Below are positions 1 to 56,382 of a stretch of 64,000 bases of DNA, one piece after another. Below the pieces are notes generated by a model that worked only from the letters and a program-made list of their open reading frames with translations, was not told where the DNA came from and searched no databases. The stretch lies in assembly GCA_000091205.1 (NCBI GenBank), contig AP006499.2. The stretch is one strand, 5' to 3'. Numbering within the stretch: the first letter of the stretch is position 1; the number at the start of each line of letters is the position of its first letter. This stretch comes from Cyanidioschyzon merolae. Lineage: Eukaryota. Made by a program: the position numbers and the translations under genes.

Positions 1-77
1 CGTTCATTACATCGCCTGCAGGTGGCTTTTTACGGCGCGCTCTCGAACGTCAACTAGCGGACGACTGGAATGATTAC

Positions 78-944
78 ATGCAATCGATGCTGGACGCTGT
101 GGAGAGGCGCCTCTGGCCTGCGGTATTCCGAGAGAAGGATCAGGCCGTTGCACCTACGGGGCAAGCTGAAACCAGTGGGATTCGTCATACGACGGTAGAG
201 ACGACAGCGACGCCCGAAGCGTCATGCGTATGCGAGAAGACGTCGGCCGCGGAAACTGGACCTCCTGAAGAAGTATTGGACACAACTGATGTAGTAGTAG
301 TGAAGACGAAGAACGGTTCGGCAAGTCGTCGGCATCGTTCGGGACCGCGTTTGACGGCAGCAACTGAAGAGAATCGACGTCGCCTGTCGCAGATTATGAC
401 CCATCTGCGTCTGCGGCACTGGCGAGCGATCCTTGGACTCGTACCTGTTTTAGCGCTCTTTTACGCTCGAGTTGTCCTGGCGGTCGCTTGGCGAGTCCTC
501 GAACGACTTGGATTTGATCTGGGAATGCTTTTGATGCTGGGATGGCGGGCACTTGGAAACCTGCGACCACTAGCGTTAGTTAGCAGGGATCGCTCTGCTC
601 AGGAAACGTCCCCATTGATGGACGGTTCTGCAGCAGACACCGACAATGGTCTACGTGCTGCAGCAAAGCGATCACACATCACGAATGCTGCTGGCAACGG
701 CGCTGCAGAAGCGCAGACGCTCGGTAGCGATATCGTTCCCAGCACCTTGAACGGACGCGTTGCCGAGGATCGCCAAGTCACCGATACTGCGCGGAGCCGG
801 TCCAATGGGGTAGCCAACTCCACGAAATACGCACCAAACGGCGTGCAGCTGCAGCGTGCCTCAACAAGAGGCCGCCGCCGCAGCGGCGCTGTGCCGGACA
901 CCAGCACCGCGGACGACAACGACAACGAGCGCAAGCGGTCATGA
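78..944 (+). CDS. hypothetical protein with two predicted TM helices (AILGLVPVLALFYARVVLAVAW, GFDLGMLLMLGW); no recognised domain
   Basis: 288-aa ORF that begins after an in-frame stop at 54-56. It has a hydrophobic core flanked by low-complexity S/T/R-rich sequence. Confidence 0.25.
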   Translation: MQSMLDAVERRLWPAVFREKDQAVAPTGQAETSGIRHTTVETTATPEASCVCEKTSAAETGPPEEVLDTTDVVVVKTKNGSASRRHRSGPRLTAATEENRRRLSQIMTHLRLRHWRAILGLVPVLALFYARVVLAVAWRVLERLGFDLGMLLMLGWRALGNLRPLALVSRDRSAQETSPLMDGSAADTDNGLRAAAKRSHITNAAGNGAAEAQTLGSDIVPSTLNGRVAEDRQVTDTARSRSNGVANSTKYAPNGVQLQRASTRGRRRSGAVPDTSTADDNDNERKRS

Positions 945-1465
945 CATACGCGGTCGATGCATGTCGCCGCTGATGTTCCAGCTACATCTTCATCGTGTAG
1001 CTGAGGGCAAATCTTGTACTCCATAAAGCGAAGGGGTATCGAGCTCGCCCTAGACTTGTTTTATGTGGACCGAGAACAGCACGGCCACGTACAAGTTGTG
1101 TCTGTTGGCAGCGTGCCGCAGCAGCGTACGACGCTGCCTGGCCATTTTTTGCATCGCTGGACGAGTTCCGCGGCTGGGTAGCTGACGGCCTCCGTTCCTA
1201 TTGCGGCCGCAGGAAACAGCGAACACGCCTATGCCGCGAATAGCATTGCTTCGCGGATTTCGTGGTCGACACGGTGATTCAGCGTATTGCTTAACTAGGA
1301 ACAGATGACTCGTTGAACTGCAAGCGCTCGAATGCTGAACATGTAGAGACGGTTGCCTGTGCAAGCTGCCTGATCTAGTGTGCAACCACGAGCAGTACGC
1401 ATTAGGCGGTTTGAGTCGGTGTTCCGGACCTACAATATCGGTTGCTGTCAGCTGCACTGAGAACA

Positions 1466-1822
1466 CGCTTCCAACTGCATCCTTACATGATCAGAGGATG
1501 CTGGCGATAGAGCGCTTGCGATTGTGCATGCTTCCCGCCAAATGTGCTGCACGCATCGATCCAACAGACAGCACATACGCCGAACGCTTCCAACTGCATC
1601 CTTACATGATCAGAGGATGCTGGCGATAGAGCGCTTGCGATTGTGCATGCTTCCCGCCAAATGTGCTGCACGCATCGATCCAACAGACAGCACATACGCC
1701 GAACGCTTCCAACTGCATCCTTACATGATCAGAGGATGCTGGCGATAGAGCGCTTGCGATTGTGCATGCTTCCCGCCAAATGTGCTGCACGCATCGATCC
1801 AACAGACAGCACATACGCCGAA
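1466..1822. repeat. tandem minisatellite, 119-bp unit x ~3 (near-identical)
   Basis: The unit cgcttccaactgcatccttacatgatcagaggatgctggcgatagagcg... recurs at 1466, 1585 and 1704. It produces the repeated 70-83 aa ORFs in the ORF track. Confidence 0.9.
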
Positions 1823-1847
1823 AGCGCTGCGTCGATCCGTGTACGTT

Positions 1848-4800
1848 TCACGTAGATGAGCGCATCGCAGGTGCGCCCTCACCTAGAAGTAGACGGAGCT
1901 GCTCAAAGTCGCTTGGATCGTTGACAAGCCTTTGCAGCTCCGTCTGAATTTGTTGGAGTTCTACGGAATGCTGCGGTTGGCGGGCAATCAGAGCAAGACG
2001 GTAGTATCGTTTCATCTGTTGGAAAATTAGCGAAAAGGTACGATCACCGACTCGAGCACGAATGCGTTCCATGATCGTTTTGCTGATCATTTGAGAGCCA
2101 CGTGCAAGAGCTGCATCCTTGTGCACAGCGGATACAGCTCGACGCTCGGCTTTCGCCTTCCAGACCAAGCCTGGTTCAGCGGTCGACGTCGACGAGACGG
2201 CCGTGGCGGCCACGTTGGTCTCGCGGAGTCTTTTCGACGACTGCGATGACAACGATAGCGAGCGCGCTCGCCGTGCATCGCATGTTCCCGTTTTTCCTGC
2301 CTGATCATACTCTTGGGACTGTCGCCCGATCATAGCTGCATGTTGCGCCATCGACTGGAGACGCGGTTGCTCGTCCTTGCTCGCCTGAAACGGATCAACA
2401 GGTGTGCGAACTGGCGGTACCGAGGTTGCGAGTTCCAACTGCGCCGCTGAGAGTTGGCGAATTCGCTCCGAGTGCCAGAAGCCGCACAGATTCGACATGA
2501 AGGTTCCAAAGCGCTCAAAAACTTGGATATTGTGCGTTGCTCGCGGATCCGCATCCGATGAAGCTGCACTCAGCCAGCGCGGGAGGTCTCTCAGATGAGC
2601 TCGAAACCGCTCGTCACAGAGGAGAATCGCTCCAAAGTCCTGCGCGTGACGAATCACCCGACCCATGGCCTGGTTTGCTGCTCGTAGGCATTGCTGCACG
2701 TACCAGAGGCGACCAGTGATCGTCTTGCCGTGATCCCTGAGGTGAAGCGCCTGACGTTCCAGATAATCGCGTTTCAGGATGATGCGCGGATCTGTTGTCG
2801 AAGGAAACGGAAGACCGACTAGAATCACCGTTCGTCCAAAGTCGTCAGCGAAATCGATCCCCTCGCCGGTGCGTCCTCGACAAACCGCGAAGAGGCATGC
2901 GTCGCGGCCGCTGGAAATCCATTGGCGGTAGGCGTCCACGGTTTGCCGAGAGGCGTCAGCGTCGCGAGGCTCCATAAAGATGCGCTTCACGGCATTGAGA
3001 CGATCCCAGACAGTCGCCTGGGTAGGCTGACGGCCACGATGAGCGGGATTCAACGGGTTGTTGTGATGAAAGGCGCCCGTCTGCCAGATTTCTACGAACC
3101 GAGCGAGCAGCACATAGGACGGAAAGAAGACGAGCATGCCACGCGGTGAGACGCGAGCGATATTGACCAGCGCGCTACCGAGATCCGAGATATACTCGCG
3201 ATTGTGTCGATTCGCATACGAGCTGTTCAGTTGAATATCCCGCGGCCCTTTGGTAAGGATCCCCGCGAATACCTGAGTTGCTGGATCGACGACATGGGAG
3301 TTCTGGAGACGAACTGGAAACGAAGCACCCATCTCCGATGCAACGGATTCTAGGGGGCTCAGCGTCCCTGAGGTCAACAGCACTGCATGTGCATTCGAGG
3401 TGGCTCGACGGAGCGCGAGACCCGGCCAAAGGCACCAGAATGAGAGCGTGTATCCTGTAGAGGAGCGATGTTCACGTGCGGATTGGTGTACGTACTTGCC
3501 AGAGGCAGCCTCTGCCGCTGCGGTGCCGCTCAAGGGTGGGCGCTGCTGCGACGGTGTTTGCCTCGGCCATCCGACACCATCGTACGCGGAGGGCGTCTTC
3601 AGACGACTGGGATTCATCGCCTGGTGGGTAGTACCAGCGGTGCCCTTCGCCGGCTCGTGCACACAGATCGCGAACGTGGACGCCGTCTCTGGTTTCCCGA
3701 ACAGACGAGATAGCTCCAGCACCTGACTGAGCTGCTCTAGCGCGTGCACCTGAGCGGCCCATGCTGCCGCTGACGTGCGCTGTGTAGTCCGTACTTGTCG
3801 GTGAAGCAGCCCCGTATAAGGATCACCCTGATCCCGTGTCTCTATGGCATCTGCTTCCGGCGCCTGTGAATGATCGAGCGCAGCAGCGGTCCCGTCAGGG
3901 AATTGTTGCCGCAATTGTGTGAGTGCACGGATCGCCGCTTCTACGCCGCGGAGCAGACGCTCATACGCTTCCTCGGTGAGCGTTGCGTCTTTCGAAGAGC
4001 ACTGCAAAAATGATTCAATAGCATGACCAGGAAGCACCACGCCATCAATCCCTTCAATCCGACGCCGCTGCCCAAAACACACCGTGCCTCCATTCTCTGC
4101 ACCAGGGCGCGCATGAGACGCCTTGGCGTCCGCCTGGGAAACCAGCGATATGCGCTCTTCAAGTGCGACCATGATTTCGAGCAGAGCGTGGAGATCAGAC
4201 GCGTGTAGCGCGGGCTCCGTGTTGGATCCTTCGCGCCCGTCGCGGTTCAGAAGACCCGAGGATAGCGCACTTGCCAATTGCTGAATAGCGCTGACGCACC
4301 TTTGACGCTCCGCAGCGGTAAAATCGAAGCTGAGACTATCACAGCAGATGCTCTCCAGATTGTGTGCCTCGTCGCCGATGATGATATCGCCTTCGACGCT
4401 GAGCCCCAGCGAACGCCGACACTTGCCATCGAACAAATAATTGTAGGGCATGAAGATGATTTCGGCCTCGGCAGATGCCTCACGACTGAGAAAATAAGGG
4501 CACATCGCATGCTGATGCCCGTACGCTGCCAAGTCCTCGAGGTCTCGTGGGCGCCGTCCCGGAAGCGCTAGCGTCGAGGTGCTGTCGACGGCGATGAAGA
4601 AAAAGTCATCGCCAACCTCCTTGAACTTTTGTTCGGCATTCAGATAAAAGCTGCAGCGTCGCTCTTTAGTCAACTGGGTACAACGAACGTTCTGCATTGT
4701 GGCGTTTTCGAGTCGAGATACAACCGGGTGGACGCAGAGGTGCTGGCGGGAGCCGAGGACCACGGTCCGAACGCTCGCACCATATGCGGTTCTGCTGAGC

Positions 4801-5276: not shown

Positions 5277-5699
5277 CCAAGCGAAACGCCCCGCTCGAGG
5301 ACAGACGTATACGTCCGTCTGAGCGCTGCATGCTGAATGGCGCCAAGTCACTGCACTGCGACTGGTATCGGTACCCTGGGGCCTTGCAAGCACCCTGGTG
5401 CTGAGTTTGAAGGCTTGTTTTCGGGGCTTTTATAGCAAAGGAACATGCTATGGGAAATGTGACGATCGTCCATAGAATAGTTTGGGAGCGTTCTCTTTCA
5501 GTCGGGAAACTGCTGGCGTCTTCCCGCACCCGTGTGTGCGGTGAGTGGACCGCTGGTGGCGCTTTGTAGACGTCGCTACGCCTATGCGAGGGCGTTTCGG
5601 GGTGACTCGAGGATCGCTTCTCTTCGACGCGTTTTCCTCATGGAGCAGAGGCATGGTAATGTGTCCGTTTTTAAGGTTCAGCGCACCGTTGGAAAGACA

Positions 5700-7376
5700 T
5701 CACCAGCACCACCACCGCCTATCACACGGACGATGCCGCCCGTGTACAGTAGTGGCGAGAAACCCGCCCTGGACAAAACGTCTCCAACCGAGGTGCAGAC
5801 GTCTCCTAGTCCTTTTGGACCGGCCATCTACTACTGCTTCCAACGTTGTCTCATATAGTTCGACTTTGAGAGGTTGTCCCAAAAAATTCTCTCTTGTCGA
5901 CTCTGGAGGTCTCGTCTCCAGCACCGCACATTTCCTTGTATTGATTGCGGCGTTAAAGTCTCGGTTCACGAATTCCATACGTTTCTCCCCGTTGGTAGTT
6001 GTGCTTACTAGTGCGCCTAGTCCTCGAACTTTCGCCCTCCTTTCCGTTTGCTCCTCCGTCAGCGCTCCGTACTTTTTTATATCCTCAGGGGTCCGTTGGC
6101 ACTTTTCCATCTCCACGCTCTGAAGTGTACACCCCAGTTCATGGTGTGTATGCAATGCTCGGAACTCATCTACAGGTATTGTAACAAAACACCTCGCGCA
6201 CTCCTTGGATGTTCTTGTCGTTGGAGCTGGCGTAGTTCCTTTTTGTATCTTCCGGCGCCCTGCTCCATATGCCACTACGAGCCTCTGATTTTCATCCTCT
6301 TTCAGGGCACTCAACTCATTGAAAAAGTCCGCGAACGCCCGCTGCCTCCCACCGTACAGATTCATCCGCAAACGAGCCCGCCGGGGCTTGGTATACTCCT
6401 CCCACAGCGCATCCCAATGGGCAACACGAACTTCCATGAATTTCCGAAAAGCTTCAAAGTCGGCTCTTCGGCTGGTCACCTCGCTCAAAGCCTCCAGGTG
6501 ATCCTTCATTCCTGCGTTCCACTTCTCAGTTTTCTTCCTCGCATTCATCATTCCCGATTCTCGACAGTATCTCGCTCTCGAGAACCTCAAAAGACGCATG
6601 TCTTTCTGACGGAAGTTGCCGTCAGCACCATCTTCCGCACGCTTCGGTGCTGCGATGGTGATGATATTTGTGTTTCGGGGGTCCGCGCCAACGACAAGGT
6701 CGTTATCCTGCACTTTCTGCGTCTCAAGACTCGCCTCCTTCTTTTCTTCATGCTTCATCGCGTCAACGACAAGCACGTTATCCTGCACTTTCTGCGTCGC
6801 ATGTTCCGCCTCCTTCTCATCTTCATACTTCGTCACGCCAACGACAAGGTCGTTATCCTCCATCTCCTGCATCGCAGGATCCCCCTCTTTGTTTTCTTCA
6901 TCCTTCGTCACGGGCGCAGCCGAGGGCCGAACTGGACGATCTTTCTTCAACCGCCGATAGTGTATACACAAGGCTACTCCATCGGTTTCGATCAACCCAG
7001 TGAACCACTTTTGCTCGCTCACTCTCAGACGTTTGAAATTGAAGATATTCTTCCAGTACGTCTCCCGGTTTTCGCCGGTGAAGTCCTCCCTGCTAACATT
7101 GAACTCCGGACTGATCTCCTTCATGATGCCGTAGAGGACGCCGGAATCGATAGTCACGAAATGTGACTTGATATTGCACATTGGAACGATGTTGAAGCGC
7201 TTCCCCATTAGGAAAGCCTTCCGTCTCTCCCACTCTTCATTTTTGTCCTCACTTAGCTCCACCTCTGCCTTGCGTTCGAGTTCTCGGTCCAGAAACACAA
7301 AATAGCGCAGGATGAGGCGATAGTATCTTTCCTTATCTTTTTTATCTCTGATATCTTGTCTGCTGGATTCGCCCAC
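5700..7376 (-). CDS. TnpB/Fanzor-like RNA-guided-endonuclease-family protein (RuvC-like nuclease with Zn-finger); probably the 3' exon/major part of a longer gene
   Basis: RuvC-I-like motif [17 protein letters not shown] Cys/His cluster follows: CARCF...HTHHELGC...EKCQ. The RuvC-III hallmark is [15 protein letters not shown] (D-x-NAA-x-N). The N-terminus is K/R-rich ([13 protein letters not shown]-like). Upstream ORFs on the same strand in alternating frames (7253-7633, 7618-7812, 7870-8181) suggest extra exons or frameshifts. Confidence 0.6.
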
Positions 7377-8200
7377 CCGAGTACCGCACGGTGCTCTTGT
7401 ATAACCGCACGGATTACAGAAGCTTCATTCGTGCTGCCGTTTGATATCCTCATGTCCACAAATTCGACCTCATCTTCATATCTGCGATCGTTCGTGATGC
7501 CATTGATAATCGCCCATATCCCCTTGCAAGAGATACCCCCGTACAGCGCAAACACGGCGCGTATCATGAAACGTTCGAGGTTCATTGTCAAAAGGTTCTT
7601 CAGGTTCGTGATATACTTCATCGCTCCGTACATGTAAATACCCCGGTCACCCTTGTATCGAGTACCCTCGAACCCGTAAAAGGGATGTCGTTCGTGGAGC
7701 GCGTGAACCCGCCCATTTTACCCCGCGTTTCCTCTGCACCAAACACCAGGTGCCGAATAAAGGTCTTGTCAAAGAACTCGTCTGGAATCTCGACTGTTTC
7801 CACGTGCGCCACGTCTTCTTACATCTCGCGCACCAAATTCATCAGTCTTGACGACACCTTTATAATACTCTAGGAGTACAGATCGACATGCTGTCTGATG
7901 TCGTCTTGCAACTTTTGCTCATCCGAATCCTCGAGGTGTCCATGAGGGCGGGTTACCACTACCGTCCCGTCATAGTCTCGTGTTTCGTGCAGCTTCTGAC
8001 GCCGGGCCTCCCCTTTTGCTTCCGTGTCTTTTCCTGTTCCTCTGCACTTGGCAGTGTTTCTCTTTTTTTTCTGGCAGCCGGCGACACTGCGCCTCCAGGA
8101 TCCTTCATTTCTATGTCCATAACTTTCCTTTGCTATGTTTTTGAAAAAGAACGCATTTTGAACGCTTCCGTTATAAACCACGTAAAATCACTTGAATACA
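5830..8200 (-). mobile_element. putative Fanzor/TnpB-carrying transposable element (approximate bounds)
   Basis: The TnpB-like ORF lies in an AT-richer island (about 7400-8450). DNA and protein homology to the second copy (53125-53950) ends abruptly near 5830-5865, which would be the putative right end. The left bound is uncertain. Confidence 0.35.
6690..6925 (-). repeat. in-frame coding tandem repeat (~78-81 bp x3) inside the Fanzor-like ORF
   Basis: The DNA unit caacgacaag[g/c][t/a]cgttatcct... recurs at ~6690, 6773 and 6846. It encodes ...[11 protein letters not shown]... three times. The last copy is the RuvC-I strand itself. Confidence 0.7.
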
Positions 8201-8605
8201 CTCATGTGAAGATTGAAACACAATTGAATTTAAAGATTATATTATGCTACGACTTGAACGCAAATACAACTTGTGCGTTAGAGCAATACGCTATTGATAA
8301 GGATCGCGTTTCCCTTCAACGGCGAGGTACGCGTCGTATCTCATACCTGCCTGATCTGAAAGTGGGCTTATCGACTGCGCTATTGAAAAAAAGAACAGAG
8401 ACTAGCCCCTATATAGCAACGAAATAACATTTTCTTCTCCCTTCAACGATAAACGTTAAAAGGCGGGAAAGGTTTCCATTTTGTCGAAACTTTACCTTCT
8501 TGGCGGAAGATCTCGCGAGCCGGACGAGTATGCCTGGCGGGTGCTTCATGCTCCCGCACTAGCGGGTGCCGTAGTGAGATCTTGGCAGCTCGTCCGAAAC
8601 CCAAT

Positions 8606-8888
8606 TTTTATTGGAATAGGACTAGAAGTGGACAGCTCTCATCCAAGTGTCGCCTTGGTCGCAGTGATCGCTTATAGTGACCCTTTGCGCGGCCGCACGC
8701 AGAAGCTCTGTCTGCGATAATTGCTGGCTCCCAGATTGATAACGAAACCTGATCCCGTGTCGCGCAAACCACGCCTCTAGTCGACGCCCCCAGTGGTATG
8801 GCAAAACCTTTCTGTCCCCGTGATGCATCCACACAAGCGGTTTAGGCGCTGTAGCGGGTGCTCAGCGCCGGCACTCGGCACACAATAG
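8606..8888 (+). repeat. ~280-bp dispersed non-coding element, copy 1 (candidate ncRNA gene or TE terminus)
   Basis: About 75% identical over its full length to 42343-42618 in the same orientation. Shared blocks are tttatt..aggactagaagtgg, tcatcca.gtgtcg, tggtcgcag, gctggctcccaga.tgataa, cgacgccc..cag.ggt.tggca and gcgggt.ctca. No protein-level conservation was seen in any frame. Confidence 0.65.
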
Positions 8889-9346
8889 ATCGTAAAAAAA
8901 CTACCCGTACATCCGAGAGACATTATAAATAATGGAACATGGGAGTAGGGTTCTCCAGCATGATGAACGCTCTCTCGATTACCAGTACCCATCCATCCCG
9001 CGATTTTAGATCCACGGTCAACGAAAACGTCTTGTGAGCGGAGAGCGGAGCGCCGCGCGGTACGCGCTCCACCGCGCGCCCGTTGATGATCGCGAGCGCG
9101 CCGGTGCGCCGCGCACTGCACCAACGACCGCACAATGCTCACGTCCGCGTTGGATTGTCTGGGTGTTTGTTTTCTTTGCAGTGACGAGGAGGCATACGGG
9201 TTTGCGCTTACAAGTCTAGCGCTCACCGCAAGCACTGGTGGCTGCGTGAGGGCGCAGACGAAATCGGGTGGTTTTTTACCGACAGAAGCGCATTTGATCG
9301 GGGCTGGAACGCTGCGCTGCTTGCGTGTGCTCGTGCCGCTCGTACG

Positions 9347-40578: not shown

Positions 40579-42342
40579 GCGAGCTCGTAGAAACAGCTTC
40601 TCCCACCGACTACCGGTATCCGAGACACTGCAAGCCGTTCCGCGGGCGTAGCAAGCCGGTACCCATACCTAGTCGCTGCAACAACTGAAGCTGCTCGCTC
40701 TGATACCAGATCCAGCAAAGGGATGACGTGTTGCACTGGGATGCCTCAAGCGCCCTATTCCCGACGCGGGTATCCATGCACCGGGGCTTGCTGCTGGAGC
40801 AAAAAGTCGTTTACAGACTATCATATCATAGAAGGCTCCAAAGAGAGCACCATCTCGCTTTATGATCTTTGACGGCAGTGAAGCTTTGCAACCAGCGGGG
40901 TGCAGTCCGCTCCGATTTGATGATTTTTTGCTGGTGGACAGAAAGTGTGAACCTCTTGCGCACTTGAGTATGGTCTCCTCGCGTTACATAGGCAGCCCGG
41001 TGTGAAACATGAGGTCCTGAACGGGCTCCCAAGCACTGTCACACTCGCCAATGGACACACTCGGCTTCCGAGGTACCGCGCATGCCTCACACTGGGCGAC
41101 ATCGAAACGTCGCCGAAAACGAACCCCTCGAGGAACGGTTTTTGGTACTCGCCCCAGAGTCGATGCATCCAGCTGGGCGTGCCGGGAGGCGCAACTGCAG
41201 CCGCAACCGCCAACGTCTATTGGAGGTCATCCTGAACCCGTTCACGGGAATCCACTGGACCATGCAAGGCCCGCGAGATGAAGCAGGTTCGGTGTATAAA
41301 CTGCGCGGTTCTAGGCGTTGAGGAGCGCTCGCGCCCAGTACCCAGGCACCCGAATGATTTTCCAACCTTCTACTCGGGCCTGTCACGAGCCCCGATGAAA
41401 TCTACGGTAAACTGGATGAATTGATGGCATCCTACGGCTGATGGCATTCGAGCCATAGCTCCATGTGGCCTTGGCGTCTCCGAGTCCGGGACTCGTAGAC
41501 GTGCCTCAGGGCGCTCTTTAGATGCGAATGATAGAAAGCATGTGCTTGCGCGTACACCTGTCGAGAACGGTCCTTTTCGGTTCGTGACTCTCGTTCAATA
41601 AAGGCCGCCGAATAAGAAGCGACATGCAAGCAGCCTCGTGCTCAACAGAGTTTCGGCCGCTGCTACAGCTACTGCTGCTGCTGCACCACGCGAACTTTGA
41701 GCATCGGTGTTTCGTGCACTACTGACGATGCTCTGCGTCTTCACTGCATAAGCCTTAACGACACTATCCATGCTGCTGTTTGAGCTAGGCCCCAGCATCT
41801 CCAAACACGAGCAGATGGGTAGGGGCGTCAAGCACACGTGCACAGCACACTCTCTCTCGAACGTAATTTCCAATGAGATGCCGCCCTTGGTGCTTTAAAC
41901 GAATGCTGCCACATTCCATTTTAAGAGTTATCGACTTGTCTTTCCCATTCGTCCCTCGCAGTGGTAGGATCGATGATGCATCTGACCACTTGATTTGATC
42001 GGAGATTCCAGAGGATCGTGGACAGCAGGCAGCGCGGCTCTCGGAATGCCTGTACGGATATAGTTCAAAGAATTCCATCAAGCCGAGCGAGGGGTAAACG
42101 AGGACCCATCGAGTGAGAGGGACCAAAGGCCGGTGAAAAAGAAACAGAAACTGACCACTAAATACCCATGACCCGATGACATTTTCCCCGCGTCTGTGGA
42201 AAGCGTTGCAAAGGGCGAAGTTTTCCGTTTTTTCGAAGGTTTACCGCCTAGGTGCAAGTTCCTGCGAGCTGAACGAGTCCACTGAGCAGTTGCTCTGTGC
42301 GGCTCGGCAGTGGCGAGGCCGTAGCAACACGTCCACAAAGCA

Positions 42343-42618
42343 TTTATTCTAGGACTAGAAGTGGGTAGCGTTCATCCACGTGTCGTCATGGTCGCAGCGG
42401 TTTCCGAGTCTATCGCTTTGTGCTGCCGCATGTTGTAGGTCTGTCTGCAGAGCTTGCCGGCTCCCAGAATGATAATTAGCCGTGATTCCGTGTCAGGCGT
42501 AGGATTCTGCGAGCCGACGCCCTCAGCGGTGTGGCAGAGCCATTCTGTCTCCATGCAGCATCCGTACCAGCGGTATAAGCACCAGTGCGGGTACTCACAA
42601 TAATCACTCGGCGCATAG
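42343..42618 (+). repeat. ~280-bp dispersed non-coding element, copy 2
   Basis: See 8606-8888: ...tttattctaggactagaagtgggtagcgttcatccacgtgtcgtcatggtcgcag...gctcccagaatgataattagccgtgattccgtgtc... Confidence 0.65.
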
Positions 42619-42967
42619 TAGAACGTACAAAATGACCCGTATATCCGAAAGAGAGTTTCCGTCATGGAACTTAAAGATAGCATGTATCATGATGGACGCT
42701 TTCCCGAATGCCATGATTCATCGCGCAACCTCAGATCCCTGCTCAGTGGACGAATTTTTTGTCATCGAAAAAAGGATTCGCAGATGCCGCTACGAGTTGC
42801 AGCCATTGCCAAGTACAGCCTCGAAAGGCATTGTGCAACTGAACCTAACAGCAGCTTCAGGACGTGTCTTTCTTAAAGACGAACGCTTCGGAATCCAGCA
42901 CGATTTTCGAACCCCATAACGCGTCTGCTTTCTGGGGTTATTAGGAGCTTGCGTTCGCCAGGTTGCG

Positions 42968-51197: not shown

Positions 51198-52841
51198 TTA
51201 GCACTGAGCTTCGTGTTCAAAGTATGGCTGGTCCTCGTGTGGCATTCGAGGACTTACTGCCGAGCTGAAGTAGTAGAAGCCAGGATAGTCGGCGAGATTA
51301 GAGCACCGCTCCGTGTAGAGATCGGCGAAGAAGCTGACCTGGTGCGCGAAGAGCGTCGTTCGATGTGCCGATCGAAACAAACCACCAAAGTGCGGATTAA
51401 AAGCATCCTCAATGGACTCTCGGACCTTTTGGAGCTCAGCCTGCAGGATTCCTTCTTCATCGGGTCGTTGGCGAGCGGAGGCATCCAAGCCCCGAAACAT
51501 CTCCGCTCGCAAAAACTCCAAAGCGCCCAGTCGGTCGAGAAGCCCTCGCGCTCGAGCCAGAGCACCGATCTCTGCACTGAGTTCGGGGACAACCAGCAAC
51601 GTACGCCAGTGATGCGTCTTCCGCGCGACCAAGACGTCTGCGTAGATGTGGTCACCGACGTAGAGAACAGTGCTTCCTCGAGAGATTCCTGCGAGCTCGT
51701 GAAAGGCGCTAATGGATCCACCTTTGAAGACTCTACCCCGCAGCGGCCGAGCACTCAGTTGGTCAGTGCGCACCTCGTATAACATGGACCTTCCGCTTTT
51801 GGTGTCGATTTCCCGCAGAGCTGTACCCGAACGAAAGAAGAGCGGCTTTTGAGCCCCCACGATGCAAAAGTCGAACGCTTCTCGCCAGCCGGCGTTGGGT
51901 TCCGCCCCGTTCGCAAACCGCCCTAGTATGAACCTGAGCACTGCATCCGTGTACCAGTATTCGGAATTCGTGAGCAGGAACAGCTGTTTCCCGGCATGTC
52001 TAAGCAAACGCAACATTCGATGGATAGCATCATCGTTTGGTAGATAGTCTGCGAGCCGGGCAAGGGTCTCGTTTTTCAGGATGCCGTGGTCGTGGATTCG
52101 ATCCGCTGCAGCTCGAACATCCTGCCATAAGTTGAAAAAGCTCAGGCGGCCGTGGTCACCATCACCGAAACGAGCACCTTCTGCAGATTCCTCTGCGGAC
52201 TGATCGAAGTACTCCACGAGATCAGCGTACAGGTTGGCGATCGGCAGATGGTACAGCGTGTCCATGCTCTGGAACTCCTCCCCGACCTGAGCAGAAGCGA
52301 TGTTTCCCGCTGGATAGGCAGCATCGACTTGTTCCGCGGTTAAGCGTCGGCGACCGTGAACGGCGCGCAGAATGACACCGTAAGCATCGCACTTGACAAA
52401 GTTTCCACGAAGAGCATCCACCAAAAGACCCCGAATGAGAAAACCCTCGTCAAAACGCCATTCCAAGATGCACTCTGGGTAACAAAACTGCTCGACCAGT
52501 TCGCGACATATAAGGTTGTACTGGAGCTGATCAAATGCAGGTCGCAGGTACGCTGCGAGCGTATAGTCCATATCGAAGCCGATGTGTGTAATGTGGTCCA
52601 AGTTCACGTCGCGGTTTGAGTAGACGCGTTGCGCTGCTGCGCGGCGAAACTTGCGAACGGCACCCTGTGCCTTCCAGGAACGAATATCGTCCGCTGTAAT
52701 GACCCGCACGAGATCTGACGCACGCTCTCCTCCAGCCAAGTGGTTCAGAACGCTTTTGGGGCTCATAGGGCTCCGCGTTGCACCACCACCAGGTAAGGTT
52801 GCTCTCGACGTTTCGTCTGAGGGTTCCCCCGACGCTGACAT
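51198..52841 (-). CDS. cytosolic purine 5'-nucleotidase (HAD superfamily, cN-II/NT5C2 family)
   Basis: GFDMDYTLAAY (HAD motif I), KCDAYGVILRAVHG, NSEYWYTD, DFCIVGAQKPLFF, YVGDHIYADV and HHWRTLLVVPELSAEI, collinear with NT5C2. Confidence 0.85.
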   Translation of the reverse strand: MSASGEPSDETSRATLPGGGATRSPMSPKSVLNHLAGGERASDLVRVITADDIRSWKAQGAVRKFRRAAAQRVYSNRDVNLDHITHIGFDMDYTLAAYLRPAFDQLQYNLICRELVEQFCYPECILEWRFDEGFLIRGLLVDALRGNFVKCDAYGVILRAVHGRRRLTAEQVDAAYPAGNIASAQVGEEFQSMDTLYHLPIANLYADLVEYFDQSAEESAEGARFGDGDHGRLSFFNLWQDVRAAADRIHDHGILKNETLARLADYLPNDDAIHRMLRLLRHAGKQLFLLTNSEYWYTDAVLRFILGRFANGAEPNAGWREAFDFCIVGAQKPLFFRSGTALREIDTKSGRSMLYEVRTDQLSARPLRGRVFKGGSISAFHELAGISRGSTVLYVGDHIYADVLVARKTHHWRTLLVVPELSAEIGALARARGLLDRLGALEFLRAEMFRGLDASARQRPDEEGILQAELQKVRESIEDAFNPHFGGLFRSAHRTTLFAHQVSFFADLYTERCSNLADYPGFYYFSSAVSPRMPHEDQPYFEHEAQC

Positions 52842-52924
52842 GTTTCAGGCTTGCTCGTGTGACCTGCTGGTGCACACCTAGCGTCGCGTTAACTCGTCCC
52901 TATGAGAGAAGCGCAAACAAACAC

Positions 52925-53950
52925 TCAAAATTGAGACACGAAGCGACAGGGTGCCAGAAAGCTACGGAACACACCGCGGTTCGTGGAGCGTATCTCCGGG
53001 CGCGCTCGGGCGACACGCGGGGATACGCGACGGTCGTGCAAAATGAATATCCACTCACAGACGCCTCGGGGTCTTTCTTTTTTTGACCAGCCCCCTGCTA
53101 TCGGTATCAGCTTCTCCTTGTAAACCTTGAGCCTGAGAGGTATTCCAATAAAGTTCGATGTCGTCAGCTCCTCAGGTCTCGTCTGCAGCACCGCACATTG
53201 TCTGATATTGATAGCAGCGTTAAAGTACTGCTGTACGAACTCCGCGCGCTTCGTACCGCTGCTTGATCTCACCGTGGCGGGGGTTCCTCGAACTCGTGCC
53301 TTTTGTTCCATTTGGCGCTTTGTCGGCTCTCTGTACTTCCGATCGGCGAAGCGCTCCGCTGGCTTAGCTCCGTTTGGACCGTTTGGAGAGGGCACCCCAG
53401 CTCATCCCTTAATTTTCTAAAATGAATACACTTGTTTATGCCGCTAGGTGAAGACCTTCCTGGAGCGAGAAGGACTTGGGGAAGAAAGACGACATATGTC
53501 TCCGTGGAACCATGTGGTAAACGCTTCAGTGCTTCGCCCGCTGGTGCCATCATTACGTTGCAAGATAGAAATTACTCTTTCGATCGGGTTGAGCCATGGA
53601 GGATACGTAGTAATGAAAAGCAGCTCTACTCCCCGGTAGAATCGGCAAAAACTCGATGGTTAGGGGAATGGTCAATGGCCATGTTCTGTAATTGAAGGTC
53701 GTCACCAGATGTCATGGGAAACGACTTCAGTGCTTCGAAGAAGTCGGGGCTGTTGTACGAGCCTTCGCTACGAGCGAAACGGATGCCGCCAAATGAATCC
53801 ATTGTAGCTAGAACAGATGATGATGTTGTCGTTGTCTTCAAGTTCGATTGCACATACAACGTGCTCCCTTTTCTGCGAGTACCCATATACGCTCCCGAGG
53901 TTGCGTCCGAAGGAAATCTCATCGACTGAAAAAACAAACCGATATCCTTT
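52925..53950 (-). pseudogene. decayed second copy of the TnpB/Fanzor-like gene (frameshifted; RuvC-III Asp lost)
   Basis: ORF 52925-53395 reads EFVQQYFNAAINIRQCAVLQTRPEELTTSNFIGIPLRLKVYKEKL. Copy 1 has [46 protein letters not shown] at the same place. The upstream frame 53269-53553 carries RDELGCPLQTVQTELSQRS, matching [19 protein letters not shown]. It sits in an AT-rich island at 53400-54500. DNA homology between the copies ends near 53125. Confidence 0.5.
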
Positions 53951-55213
53951 GCCTCAAAGTAATCGCGACGTTCCAGGAACGCTGTCGATTCGATTTCGTT
54001 GCCAGAGAGCCGTGACTGAAATCCGACTTGTTTACGAACTGTATCCCAGTGAATTCAGGGTCACACGAAGCAGCTGTTCAGAAACAGAGATGGCCATTGC
54101 GGCTGCAAGCTTCCCTTTTGCCGTCCGTAAGGTGCTCAACGGGTCGTTTTGTACCATGGACCGCAAGCAGTCTTTGAGCATATCGGTTTCCGGCACCGAG
54201 CGCATGTACTTCTTCGTCTCAGTGTTACTCAACCATCAGCGTCCCGTTGTATACTTGACCTCAATGCGGAATGCAGTCCTCCATGCACTGTTCAGTCAAG
54301 AATCTAGGTCGTCCACGATTTATACGGATACATTGCATCGTGATTTCGACTTTCTCCTACACACTGCCAAAAAAAGCATTCGATTACACGCAGCTGGAAT
54401 GGAACAAAACTGAGCTGAAGTTTTTGTAACGACGCCAGTACTTCATTGGAACGCTGACAAAAAAGCATTCTTCCTTTGGTCAGAACGGTACTTGTGGTGC
54501 GGGTGTACGGGCATCACCCGCTATTTTAGGTTGCATGCTTTCGCTCAAAAATAAACGCTATACCAGGAAAAGCAACACATATGACCAGCCTTGCATCGTC
54601 AGAAACGCTCGCAACAGACATTTTGCGTGTGTCGGGCGCCTCGTTTGATACGCACCGTTGACTCGAACTCGAGCCTGCTCTTGATGATTGCCTTTGACAC
54701 GAAGTCCCGAGTGTCCCAGTGATGGGCAAGGTGCGTAGAAACGGTGCACGCTCCGTCTAGGCGAGTAGATGCTCGTGCGTAGTCACGGCATTGCAGACCG
54801 GATGTCGTTGAGCAGGTTCCTCTCAGGACCGAGAACGACACGCCTGCTTGGCGGAAAATGCTTTCACAGACTGTTGACGATGTCACAGCGGAATCCAGCT
54901 CCGACCGATATAGATACATGATCGCTCCTAGAACGGGAGCAGAGGCATGAACCGAGACTGCTCGTGATCTCGTTCTGTTTTCAAGTGCGTGCCACCCCGT
55001 TCGCCCGAGGTTTCCTATCTCCATCTCGCTGCCTAACTTGCTGCAGTTGGCGACCTCGTCCCACTATCTATTATCATGAGACCTCTACCTATCATCCAAG
55101 CGGTATTCCCATTTCTCCATGAGAGCGTCGCCTTTAGCGGACAGCGTCGCCATGAACGATTGTTCCAGAATTACTTGCGTCCTCTTTACGATTGCATATC
55201 CATGTTCATCAGG

Positions 55214-55248
55214 CACCACCACCACCACCACCACCACCACCACCACCA
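55214..55248. repeat. (CAC)n microsatellite, ~11 units
   Basis: caccaccaccacc... in the 3' flank of the 55264-56382 gene. It produces the artefactual poly-His and poly-Val ORFs. Confidence 0.9.
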
Positions 55249-55263
55249 TAATACAGAGCGCGC

Positions 55264-56382
55264 TCAACGTTTGGATCCCGTGTCGGTTGTTTTGGCGGTT
55301 CGGACAGCTCCTTTCGATCCAGTACCTACGATGCTGCGCATCATTTGGTGGTGCTCGATCAACCACTCGTTAGAATGCTCCGCGGCTGCAGCTGTTTCTC
55401 CAGACCTGCTCCTTGCGTCATTCCGCGGCGGTAGTCTGGACCTTCGCATTTTCTGCATTTGTTGCTTCAGCACTTGAATAACCTTGCGATTCAGCGGCGT
55501 ATCGACGCTAATCAGGATTGCAACCAGCATGACTACTGTGCTTGCGACGACGGCGAGGATTGTGAACAGCAAACGATACTCCCGCCCGGATTCGGCTGGG
55601 GTTATTTCAACAACGCCATCCAGCACTTTGATGCTATACCCGAGCATCGAGTTGCGATCCAGGAAAGCCGCAATCGATCCCTCCGGTTGCGTGGACACCA
55701 GTGAGGCGAGCTGCTCTGGGCGGAACCCCAGTTCGATTAAGAGCTCCCGATTTTTCCACTGTCGTTCGAGGAAAACCGTCAAGCGGAGGATGCAAGGTCC
55801 GGGCGGGAATGCAGCATGCACGGCCAGTGGATAGACGAAGGAGAGCTCTTGTCCTCGGGTTAGCGTTCGATTCACCAGCAAGAACGACATGTTTTGGAGA
55901 TGCGCTGACGGGTTTTGTATCGCGTGCAACGCGCCGATAGCACCAACAACCAGATAGGGTTCATGTTCCGTCACATTATCCGCACTATTTCGAGCGTCTT
56001 CAGCGTCCTGGTGTGCCACGGTTACAAGGACGTACTTCGAATCGCCCGCGGCAAGCTTCACGGCGGTTTCTGCTTCGTGTCCAGCCTTGGCGGTCGAATT
56101 GTGTTCCGCACCGCCAACGAACGCGTAAGCGTATTCTATATCTTCCGGAGCGTCAGGCGGGTCCGTAAGAGGGTGCACCTTGGAGATCAGGTGCCGCCGA
56201 ACGAACTTGTCGAAGACACTGAGCACCTCAAGCGCGGTGCTCTCCGAGCTGTCGTCACTTGCTTTTTCGTCACCTCTCACGGATTTCGAGCCCAAAACGA
56301 GCAGACACCGGGTTGAAACCAGTAGCGTACATAGTACGACGGCAAGGAAAACAGTCTTCCCTCCGGATGATACCCTCATCAT
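55264..56382 (-). CDS. hypothetical type-I membrane / secreted protein (signal peptide + C-terminal TM)
   Basis: The N-terminus MMRVSSGGKTVFLAVVLCTLLVSTRCLLVLG looks like a signal peptide. The C-terminal TM helix is LLFTILAVVASTVVMLVAILISV, followed by a basic tail. No domain was recognised. Confidence 0.4.
   Translation of the reverse strand: MMRVSSGGKTVFLAVVLCTLLVSTRCLLVLGSKSVRGDEKASDDSSESTALEVLSVFDKFVRRHLISKVHPLTDPPDAPEDIEYAYAFVGGAEHNSTAKAGHEAETAVKLAAGDSKYVLVTVAHQDAEDARNSADNVTEHEPYLVVGAIGALHAIQNPSAHLQNMSFLLVNRTLTRGQELSFVYPLAVHAAFPPGPCILRLTVFLERQWKNRELLIELGFRPEQLASLVSTQPEGSIAAFLDRNSMLGYSIKVLDGVVEITPAESGREYRLLFTILAVVASTVVMLVAILISVDTPLNRKVIQVLKQQMQKMRRSRLPPRNDARSRSGETAAAAEHSNEWLIEHHQMMRSIVGTGSKGAVRTAKTTDTGSKR

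Follow-up and report, generated by a model that had tools for sequence, protein, structure and literature searches.

Does a 64,000-nt stretch of Cyanidioschyzon merolae DNA, which we call the window, carry two copies of one Fanzor element, or are its two Fanzor-related loci different things? An earlier note on the letters alone had described the interval 52925-54500 as a second, decayed copy of an element found elsewhere in the window, and had pointed out that both copies seemed to sit in the same way just upstream of a host gene. We refer to the two loci as copy 1 and copy 2 and ask what copy 2 is, where it came from and whether its position means anything.

Host genome and gene neighborhood

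Four ORFs of the window matched exactly, or shared a 90%-identity cluster with, proteins of C. merolae strain 10D, which assigned the window to a 1.23-Mb chromosome of that strain. The complete C. merolae genome (16.5 Mb) is compact and nearly intron-free, and the organism has efficient homologous recombination. From the ORF list and the cluster look-up, copy 2 lies between CMQ281C (55264-56382, minus strand, BAM82160.1) and a cytosolic purine 5'-nucleotidase gene (51198-52841, minus strand, BAM82159.1, 547 aa); the look-up also identified CMQ277C (BAM82157.1) and, on the plus strand, a glycerol-3-phosphate transporter (BAM82148.1). The spacer between CMQ281C and the 5'-nucleotidase gene is 2422 bp long in the window. 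Copy 2 had been placed in an AT-rich island; a dip in G+C is indeed present there, but it is mild (0.507-0.509 at 53-55 kb versus 0.55-0.58 nearby).

Copy 1 is a nearly full-length CMe-1A element

CMe-1A is a Fanzor1 element of C. merolae with about 150 copies, each approximately 80% identical to a 3169-bp consensus (PMC3627910). It was published without terminal inverted repeats (TIRs) or target site duplications (TSDs), and its class was given as unknown (Bao & Jurka 2013, PMC3627910). We took the CMe-1A consensus DNA and the CMe-1 protein from the supplement of that paper and searched the window by blastn and tblastn, with Tandem Repeats Finder for internal repeats. Copy 1 (5713-9040, minus strand) was a nearly full-length CMe-1A: consensus positions 6-3152 mapped colinearly to window positions 9035-5730 with 82-89% identity, while copy 2 failed to give such a match and aligned with consensus positions 2737-3083 only. 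The Fanzor ORF of copy 1 was broken into four frame pieces by tblastn, and copy 1 is itself a pseudogene, a frameshifted CMe-1A. It contains an internal tandem repeat (three units of 75 bp at 6686-6912), and its ORF 5700-7376 (minus strand) had about 95 relatives in hot-spring metagenomes. The Pfam entry of the copy 1 family is DUF8286 (PF26935); Pfam searches with the ORFs of copy 1 and copy 2 gave no usable match.

Within the 3' region of CMe-1A, conservation of the DNA continues past premature stop codons, and a hairpin forms the end. RNAalifold returned a weak, largely invariant structure for this region, with a covariation term of -0.19 kcal/mol, in an alignment whose misalignment hid the terminal hairpin. 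When the flanks of CMe-1A copies were searched for a target motif or TSD, the 5' end was preceded by a T-rich run and the 3' end followed by TTTGNTGGTG-like bases; this pattern may only reflect a published consensus that lacks 10-15 nt at each end.

The CMe-1 family groups with Fanzor1 nucleases

CMe-1 was placed in Fanzor1 by Bao & Jurka (2013, PMC3627910), and a structural comparison agreed with this placement. The six best PDB matches to a model of an intact family member were all Fanzor1 structures (SpuFz, PpFz, and GtFz; Foldseek E values of 3.5e-9 to 2e-5), and weak Cas12 matches ranked below them. The AlphaFold model was poor (pLDDT of 56, pTM of 0.33), and the fold search therefore rests on the Foldseek E values and the identity of the top matches, with the TM-scores (approximately 0.25) set aside. 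At the sequence level, the best PDB match of the family was again SpuFz, although weakly (E=0.15 in a single-sequence search). A profile of 16 family sequences gave no match among PDB sequences, and the protein database, when searched with a profile, yielded no more-distant annotated relatives. The family has RuvC motifs of the DxxxE...RD type (GADPGNTN, VDEFRTS, and NRDFNAAIN) and, judging from the Foldseek matches, would fold like SpuFz1 (8GKH), PpFz, and GtFz, whereas copy 2 keeps only the RuvC-III segment of this catalytic set, with the Asp mutated.

Copy 2 retains only the end of a Fanzor1 gene

A second Fanzor-related stretch on the minus strand does exist. With the copy 1 protein as the query, tblastn found it at 53341-53051 (47% identity, E=6e-20), and the CMe-1 consensus protein matched it with 52.6% identity (E=4e-24), which establishes the Fanzor1 homology of copy 2. 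As had been proposed, the remnant is split over two frames. Consensus residues 612-632 (ELGCPLQTVQTE...) align at 53341-53403 (minus strand) within ORF 53269-53553, as seen by tblastn and frame translation, and residues 634-730, which include RuvC-III, align by tblastn at 53051-53338 (minus strand) and belong to ORF 52925-53395. The proposed loss of the catalytic residue was likewise confirmed: RuvC-III of copy 2 reads EFVQQYFNAAIN, with QY in place of the catalytic RD of the family, and the Tyr codon that replaces the Asp codon is at 53227-53225. The RuvC-I (GADPGNTN) and RuvC-II (VDEFRTS) segments are absent, since copy 2 starts at consensus residue 612. A complete RuvC triad (D ... E ... 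RD) is thus missing from copy 2, and with RuvC-I and RuvC-II gone and RuvC-III mutated it cannot be a Fanzor nuclease.

The identity of 60-70% given for copy 2 also held when measured against the family consensus (67.6% over 352 nt at consensus positions 2737-3083, blastn E=1.5e-27); the direct DNA match between copy 1 and copy 2 was short (93 nt). Thus far, the description of copy 2 as a decayed and catalytically dead relative of Fanzor, from an old and diversified family, was borne out. Its extent was not. The Fanzor-derived part of copy 2 is confined to 53051-53405, that is, residues 612-730 of the 734-residue consensus with one frameshift, or 16% of the protein (the last ~120 codons), and 53406-54500 is not Fanzor sequence but a decayed DDE_3 (Tc1/mariner-type) transposase. 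Compared with CMe-1A of the same genome, copy 2 has only consensus positions 2737-3083 (residues 612-730) in common and lacks the remaining 2.7 kb, including the 635-bp TE-N2-like 5' module and the 610 N-terminal residues. CMe-1A has no transposase, whereas copy 2 has a transposase fossil in place of the other 2.7 kb of CMe-1A. Rather than two copies of one element, the window therefore holds members of two element families with only a 350-bp tail in common. Rfam and tRNA searches of the copy 2 interval gave no match.

The rest of copy 2 is a fossil DDE_3 transposase

The transposase coding region is present in copy 2 as a fossil of the Tc1/mariner/IS630 type (53457-54295, minus strand), recognized by tblastn, by Pfam DDE_3, and by motif remnants. 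It spans approximately residues 21-297 of ~305 in three frames with in-frame stops. An intact 306-aa transposase from a brine metagenome (L071) aligned with window positions 54295-53457 over residues 21-297 (tblastn, E=1e-13 and 3e-12), and one frame translation gave a Pfam DDE_3 match (E=0.0038). In the three minus-strand translations ahead of the Fanzor tail, what is left of the D, D, and E motifs reads FSVDEISF, MAIDHSPNH, and YPPWLNPIE (TTYPPWLNPIERVISILQR in the frame reading), as is typical of Tc1/mariner transposases. The first-frame Fanzor1 remnant (53341-53403) follows directly after the transposase C terminus.

No credible inverted pair at 53040/54425 emerged when the surroundings of copy 2 were searched for repeats. 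Neither TIRs nor a TA duplication was found at copy 2, and the alignment of its relatives, described below as type B, showed no shared inverted termini; short TIRs could be hidden by decay because type B copies are ~30% diverged from each other. With no such termini found, mobilization by a DDE_3 enzyme is inferred from the coding content. A perfect 12-nt inverted pair (53301-53312 and 54398-54409) was considered as a TIR and rejected as a chance match, as it lies within the Fanzor-homologous coding remnant.

Copy 2 belongs to a degenerate family with a fixed architecture

A family scan of metagenome contigs returned 80 loci, and relatives of copy 2 came from the flanks of loci fetched for CMe-1A, which makes their census an incidental one. 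In a blastn search with the whole spacer, window positions 54419-53047 aligned continuously to one such locus (L070/L025/L055; 67.7% identity, E=4e-128), 54364-53175 aligned to L050 with 70.1% identity, and L041/L040 and L043/L066 gave similar matches; the E values of these 1.4-kb alignments reached 1e-140. The alignments run across the junction of transposase and Fanzor tail, and the same junction was found in at least four other independent loci with 68-70% DNA identity. The same join in independent copies means that it was present in the founder of the family and was not made at the copy 2 locus. Conservation in the multiple alignment ended at ~54425 and ~53040, with unrelated flanks beyond, and type B copies stop at a common position, ~70 nt before the 3' end of CMe-1A. 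Type B copies, including copy 2, thus lack the last ~70 nt of CMe-1A with the terminal hairpin, and they also lack the partner of a long-range helix in the CMe-1A 3' region. All five type B copies examined were degenerate, with no open stretch longer than 174 aa. By these alignments, copy 2 belongs to a family of its own, old and extinct and ~1.4 kb in length, which we call type B, made of a transposase followed by the last ~120 Fanzor codons.

The family boundaries place copy 2, as a whole type B composite of ~1385 bp, at 53040-54425 on the minus strand (each end within ~10 bp). A host spacer of 198 bp (52842-53039, minus strand) separates its 3' end from the ATG of the 5'-nucleotidase gene, and one of 838 bp (54426-55263, minus strand) separates the CMQ281C stop codon from its 5' end. 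Because the family alignments set the ends at ~53040 and ~54425, the distance to the ATG at 52841 is ~200 bp instead of the ~285 bp given before.

More distant, intact relatives with both genes were found on two brine-metagenome contigs (L071 and L072), where a transposase of 304-306 aa lies immediately upstream of an intact Fanzor of 702-713 aa. These transposases matched DDE_3 at 2e-23 and 1e-27, above the Pfam gathering score, as well as HTH_Tnp_Tc3_2, and a 16-nt inverted repeat was present near both ends of the elements. The L071/L072 relatives are only ~35% identical and come from an organism other than C. merolae. The same architecture is found in PUl-1, PUl-2, and PGv-1, which are mariner elements with a transposase upstream of a co-oriented Fanzor1 (Bao & Jurka 2013, PMC3627910), and type B has it in truncated form. 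The differences are that the published elements have TIRs of 24-33 bp and TA duplications, none of which is detectable at copy 2, that type B retains only a sixth of Fanzor, and that the transposases are distantly related. Copy 2 fits a decayed Tc1/mariner-Fanzor composite in its coding remnants, though without visible TIRs or a TA duplication. The literature searched, in which Repbase was not covered, contained no description of the type B family or of a C. merolae mariner family. The one modestly new point bears on the class of CMe-1A: its tail occurs in a mariner-type family within this genome as well, and intact relatives with transposase plus Fanzor exist elsewhere.

Copy 2 was probably gained within the C. 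merolae lineage and evolves like spacer DNA

Every one of the seven sampled C. merolae strains (the window and six contigs that span the whole spacer) had copy 2. The six contigs were 99.4-99.9% identical to the window (C. merolae-like), and four shorter contigs (L086-L095 together with the six) also carried copy 2, breaking off inside the element. The gene order RPN2, RRM protein, ~360-aa protein, 5'-nucleotidase, and HPPK-DHPS was kept in three further cyanidiophyte lineages, in which the 5'-nucleotidase was 78% (Cyanidiococcus yangmingshanensis, L083), 82% (L084), and 66% (L085) identical to that of the window. Upstream of the 5'-nucleotidase gene, these lineages have spacers of 1292, 648, and 462 bp, respectively, versus 2422 bp in the window, and blastn and tblastn detected nothing of CMe-1A, type B, the transposase, or the tail in these orthologous spacers.

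Nucleotide diversity among the seven strains was 0.17-0.24% in three flanking coding regions and 0.50-0.77% in ordinary spacers, compared with 0.84% in the transposase fossil and 0.51% in the copy 2 Fanzor tail. No site segregated within the last 84 bp of copy 2, versus about 1.3 expected, a difference that is not significant; there may be weak constraint on this segment. The distribution and diversity together indicate that copy 2 is a fixed, neutrally decaying insertion that was presumably gained after the split from Cyanidiococcus.

Origin of copy 2

Copy 2 is very probably a fossil Tc1/mariner-type (DDE_3) transposon with a 3' module descended from a CMe-1-lineage Fanzor1 gene. The type B founder would have arisen by internal deletion of a transposase-plus-Fanzor composite resembling L071/L072, an origin suggested by the fact that these intact relatives, although distant and from a different organism, have both genes. 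Internal-deletion derivatives of transposons are commonplace. The founder would have been mobilized by its own transposase or that of a sister element. Copy 2 would then have inserted into the spacer between CMQ281C and the 5'-nucleotidase gene after the Cyanidiococcus split, become fixed, and decayed neutrally, and its position ~200 bp from a gene start would follow from the survival of only spacer insertions in a compact, nearly intron-free genome. It would now have no function. As read from its frames, copy 2 is a relic of a Fanzor gene, unable to encode either nuclease or transposase.

Could two insertion events instead have produced copy 2, a 5'-truncated CMe-1A landing beside, or being interrupted by, an unrelated mariner fossil? 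The Fanzor part does align with the CMe-1A consensus, its protein resembles CMe-1A tails (up to 58.5% identity) and other type B tails to about the same degree, and solo C-terminal Fanzor fragments occur at other loci. However, one and the same junction is seen in the window, L050, L070/L025/L055, L041/L040, and L043/L066, which have unrelated flanks, a single continuous alignment (54419-53047 versus L070) spans it, and the common end of all type B copies, which lack the final ~70 nt of CMe-1A, argues in the same direction, so that we regard separate insertions as very unlikely. It is vanishingly improbable that chance or low complexity explains the similarity and that no second element exists: the shortness of the DNA match between the two copies (93 nt) speaks for it, but tblastn (E=4e-24), blastn to the consensus (E=1.5e-27), and the 1.4-kb alignments (E down to 1e-140) all speak against it.

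A different question is whether co-option has made the Fanzor tail of copy 2, for instance, part of the promoter or 5' untranslated region of the 5'-nucleotidase gene or an omega-RNA-like RNA. In favor, copy 2 has the orientation of the gene and stops ~200 bp before its ATG, none of the 84 last positions segregates, element ends across the family face gene 5' ends above expectation, and the 3' region of CMe-1A has its DNA conserved past premature stops and a hairpin at its end. Diversity in the tail (0.51%) and the transposase (0.84%) is nevertheless at or above the spacer level, and 0 of 84 is not significant. The 5'-nucleotidase gene and its neighbors are kept in three lineages without the element, type B lacks the CMe-1A terminal hairpin and long-range helix partner, no Rfam match was found, and covariation in the CMe-1A 3' region was negligible (-0.19 kcal/mol). 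Co-option is thus distinctly unlikely, and copy 2 is a real but ordinary dead transposon fossil. Being neutral, and with the Fanzor family of this genome catalogued as early as 2013, it matters little in itself. What may interest transposon specialists is the class of CMe-1A, along with the census of divergent promoter spacers given below. The tail fused to a mariner-type transposase in an older sister family, together with intact transposase-plus-Fanzor relatives, points to a probable Tc1/mariner origin for the CMe-1 Fanzor1 lineage.

Position relative to host genes

About 454 bp separate the 3' end of copy 1 from the first ATG of a DEAD_2-helicase ORF, in agreement with the ~450 bp reported before. 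The spacer is divergent, with the helicase (minus strand) to the left and the glycerol-3-phosphate transporter (plus strand) to the right, and the 3' end of copy 1 would therefore face a gene start in either orientation. The geometry said to be shared by the two insertions consequently dissolves, as copy 1 is uninformative and copy 2, in a tandem spacer, is a single 50:50 event.

We extended the comparison to other CMe-1A insertions in a census of spacer type and of orientation to neighboring genes. Genes were taken as ORFs of at least 200 aa outside transposable element matches, which is reasonable because the genome is nearly intron-free, and loci were de-duplicated by neighbor-protein similarity. 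The 15 insertions with both neighbors identified lay in 8 divergent, 6 tandem, and 1 convergent spacers; the numbers are small, the gene calls are ORF based, and environmental strains are mixed. Orientation-specific geometry did not emerge, since the tandem-spacer insertions were split 3:3 (n=6). Divergent spacers make up 24% of transposable element-free spacer length in the same data versus 8 of 15 insertions (p of about 0.014), which hints at a weak promoter-side (divergent-spacer) preference or retention of CMe-1A irrespective of orientation; target preference and differential retention fit this enrichment alike in these data.

A combined reading would go further, with the Fanzor-bearing elements inserting into, or being selectively retained in, divergent promoter-promoter spacers and type B having kept the Fanzor tail as a cis-acting mobility module (an omega-RNA scaffold or a recognition end for transposase or Fanzor). 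We consider this combination unlikely; if true, target choice or transposon maintenance would be linked to a eukaryotic RNA-guided nuclease module. Counted by element end, gene 5' ends were faced by 14 of 18 element 5' ends and by 22 of 32 element 3' ends.

Structure and context of the Fanzor1 elements

Apparently intact composite elements were found in two brine metagenome contigs, L071 (529-3703) and L072 (103-3310), which are distant relatives of the C. merolae copies. Both encode a DDE_3 transposase of 304-306 aa and, directly downstream of it, a Fanzor1 protein of 702-713 aa whose identity to CMe-1 (the protein of the C. merolae Fanzor1 element CMe-1A) is about 37%. Both also carry the inverted repeat TGAATAATGAAACAGT near their two ends.

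The 3' region of CMe-1A resembles an omega RNA, although the covariation detected there by RNAalifold was negligible. Conservation of the last ~250 nt at the DNA level, seen at window 5713-5990 and in the CMe-1A loci of alignment A3, persists in copies with premature stops, and within this stretch GTAGTGGGTGG and CCGCCACTAC could pair as a long-range helix. A terminal hairpin closes the region and occurs in two common forms, CGTTCGA-CTT-TCGAACG and CGTTTTTC-TTT-GAAAGGCG, which look compensatory by eye. Beyond the published consensus ends, a further 10-15 nt are semi-conserved in many loci (for example, window 9041-9080 and 5690-5712), where the 5' end is preceded by GAT plus a T/C-rich run and the 3' end is followed by TTTGNTGGTG-like bases. 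Either the published consensus is slightly short, or these flanks reflect a target-site preference.

Within the Fanzor open reading frame of copy 1, the near full-length but frameshifted CMe-1A copy, a 75-bp unit is repeated three times in tandem (window 6686-6912; 80% matches) and gives rise to a repeated acidic/lysine-rich linker in the encoded protein. Other members of the CMe-1A family have one to four units of this type.

In several 13-kb loci, each retrieved on account of a single CMe-1A copy, a second fragment was present, either a copy of the decayed type B element or a solo Fanzor C-terminal piece (L006, L036, L040/L041, L045/L077, L043/L047, L050, and L025/L055/L070), which suggests that CMe-1A and type B elements cluster in TE-rich spacers. 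Like copy 1, a solo copy of the CMe-1A 5' 636 bp (window 42138-42767, minus strand; 74% identity to CMe-1A) occupies a divergent spacer; it corresponds by sequence match to TE-N2_CMe, an element reported to have about 70 copies (Bao & Jurka, PMC3627910).

Four independent metagenome or SRA contigs from a 99.45% identical strain, each from a different assembly (L086-L089), all end at window 53423-53429, within a few bases of the junction between the transposase and the Fanzor tail of copy 2, the type B element. Six other contigs read through this junction, and no structural variant was observed; the common break point may mark a branch that strain variation introduced into the assembly graph. 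In the spacer of copy 2, a (CAC/GTG)n triplet run (window 55213-55245) lies immediately beyond the stop codon (55264) of the host gene CMQ281C, and one of its reading frames contains a 12-His stretch.
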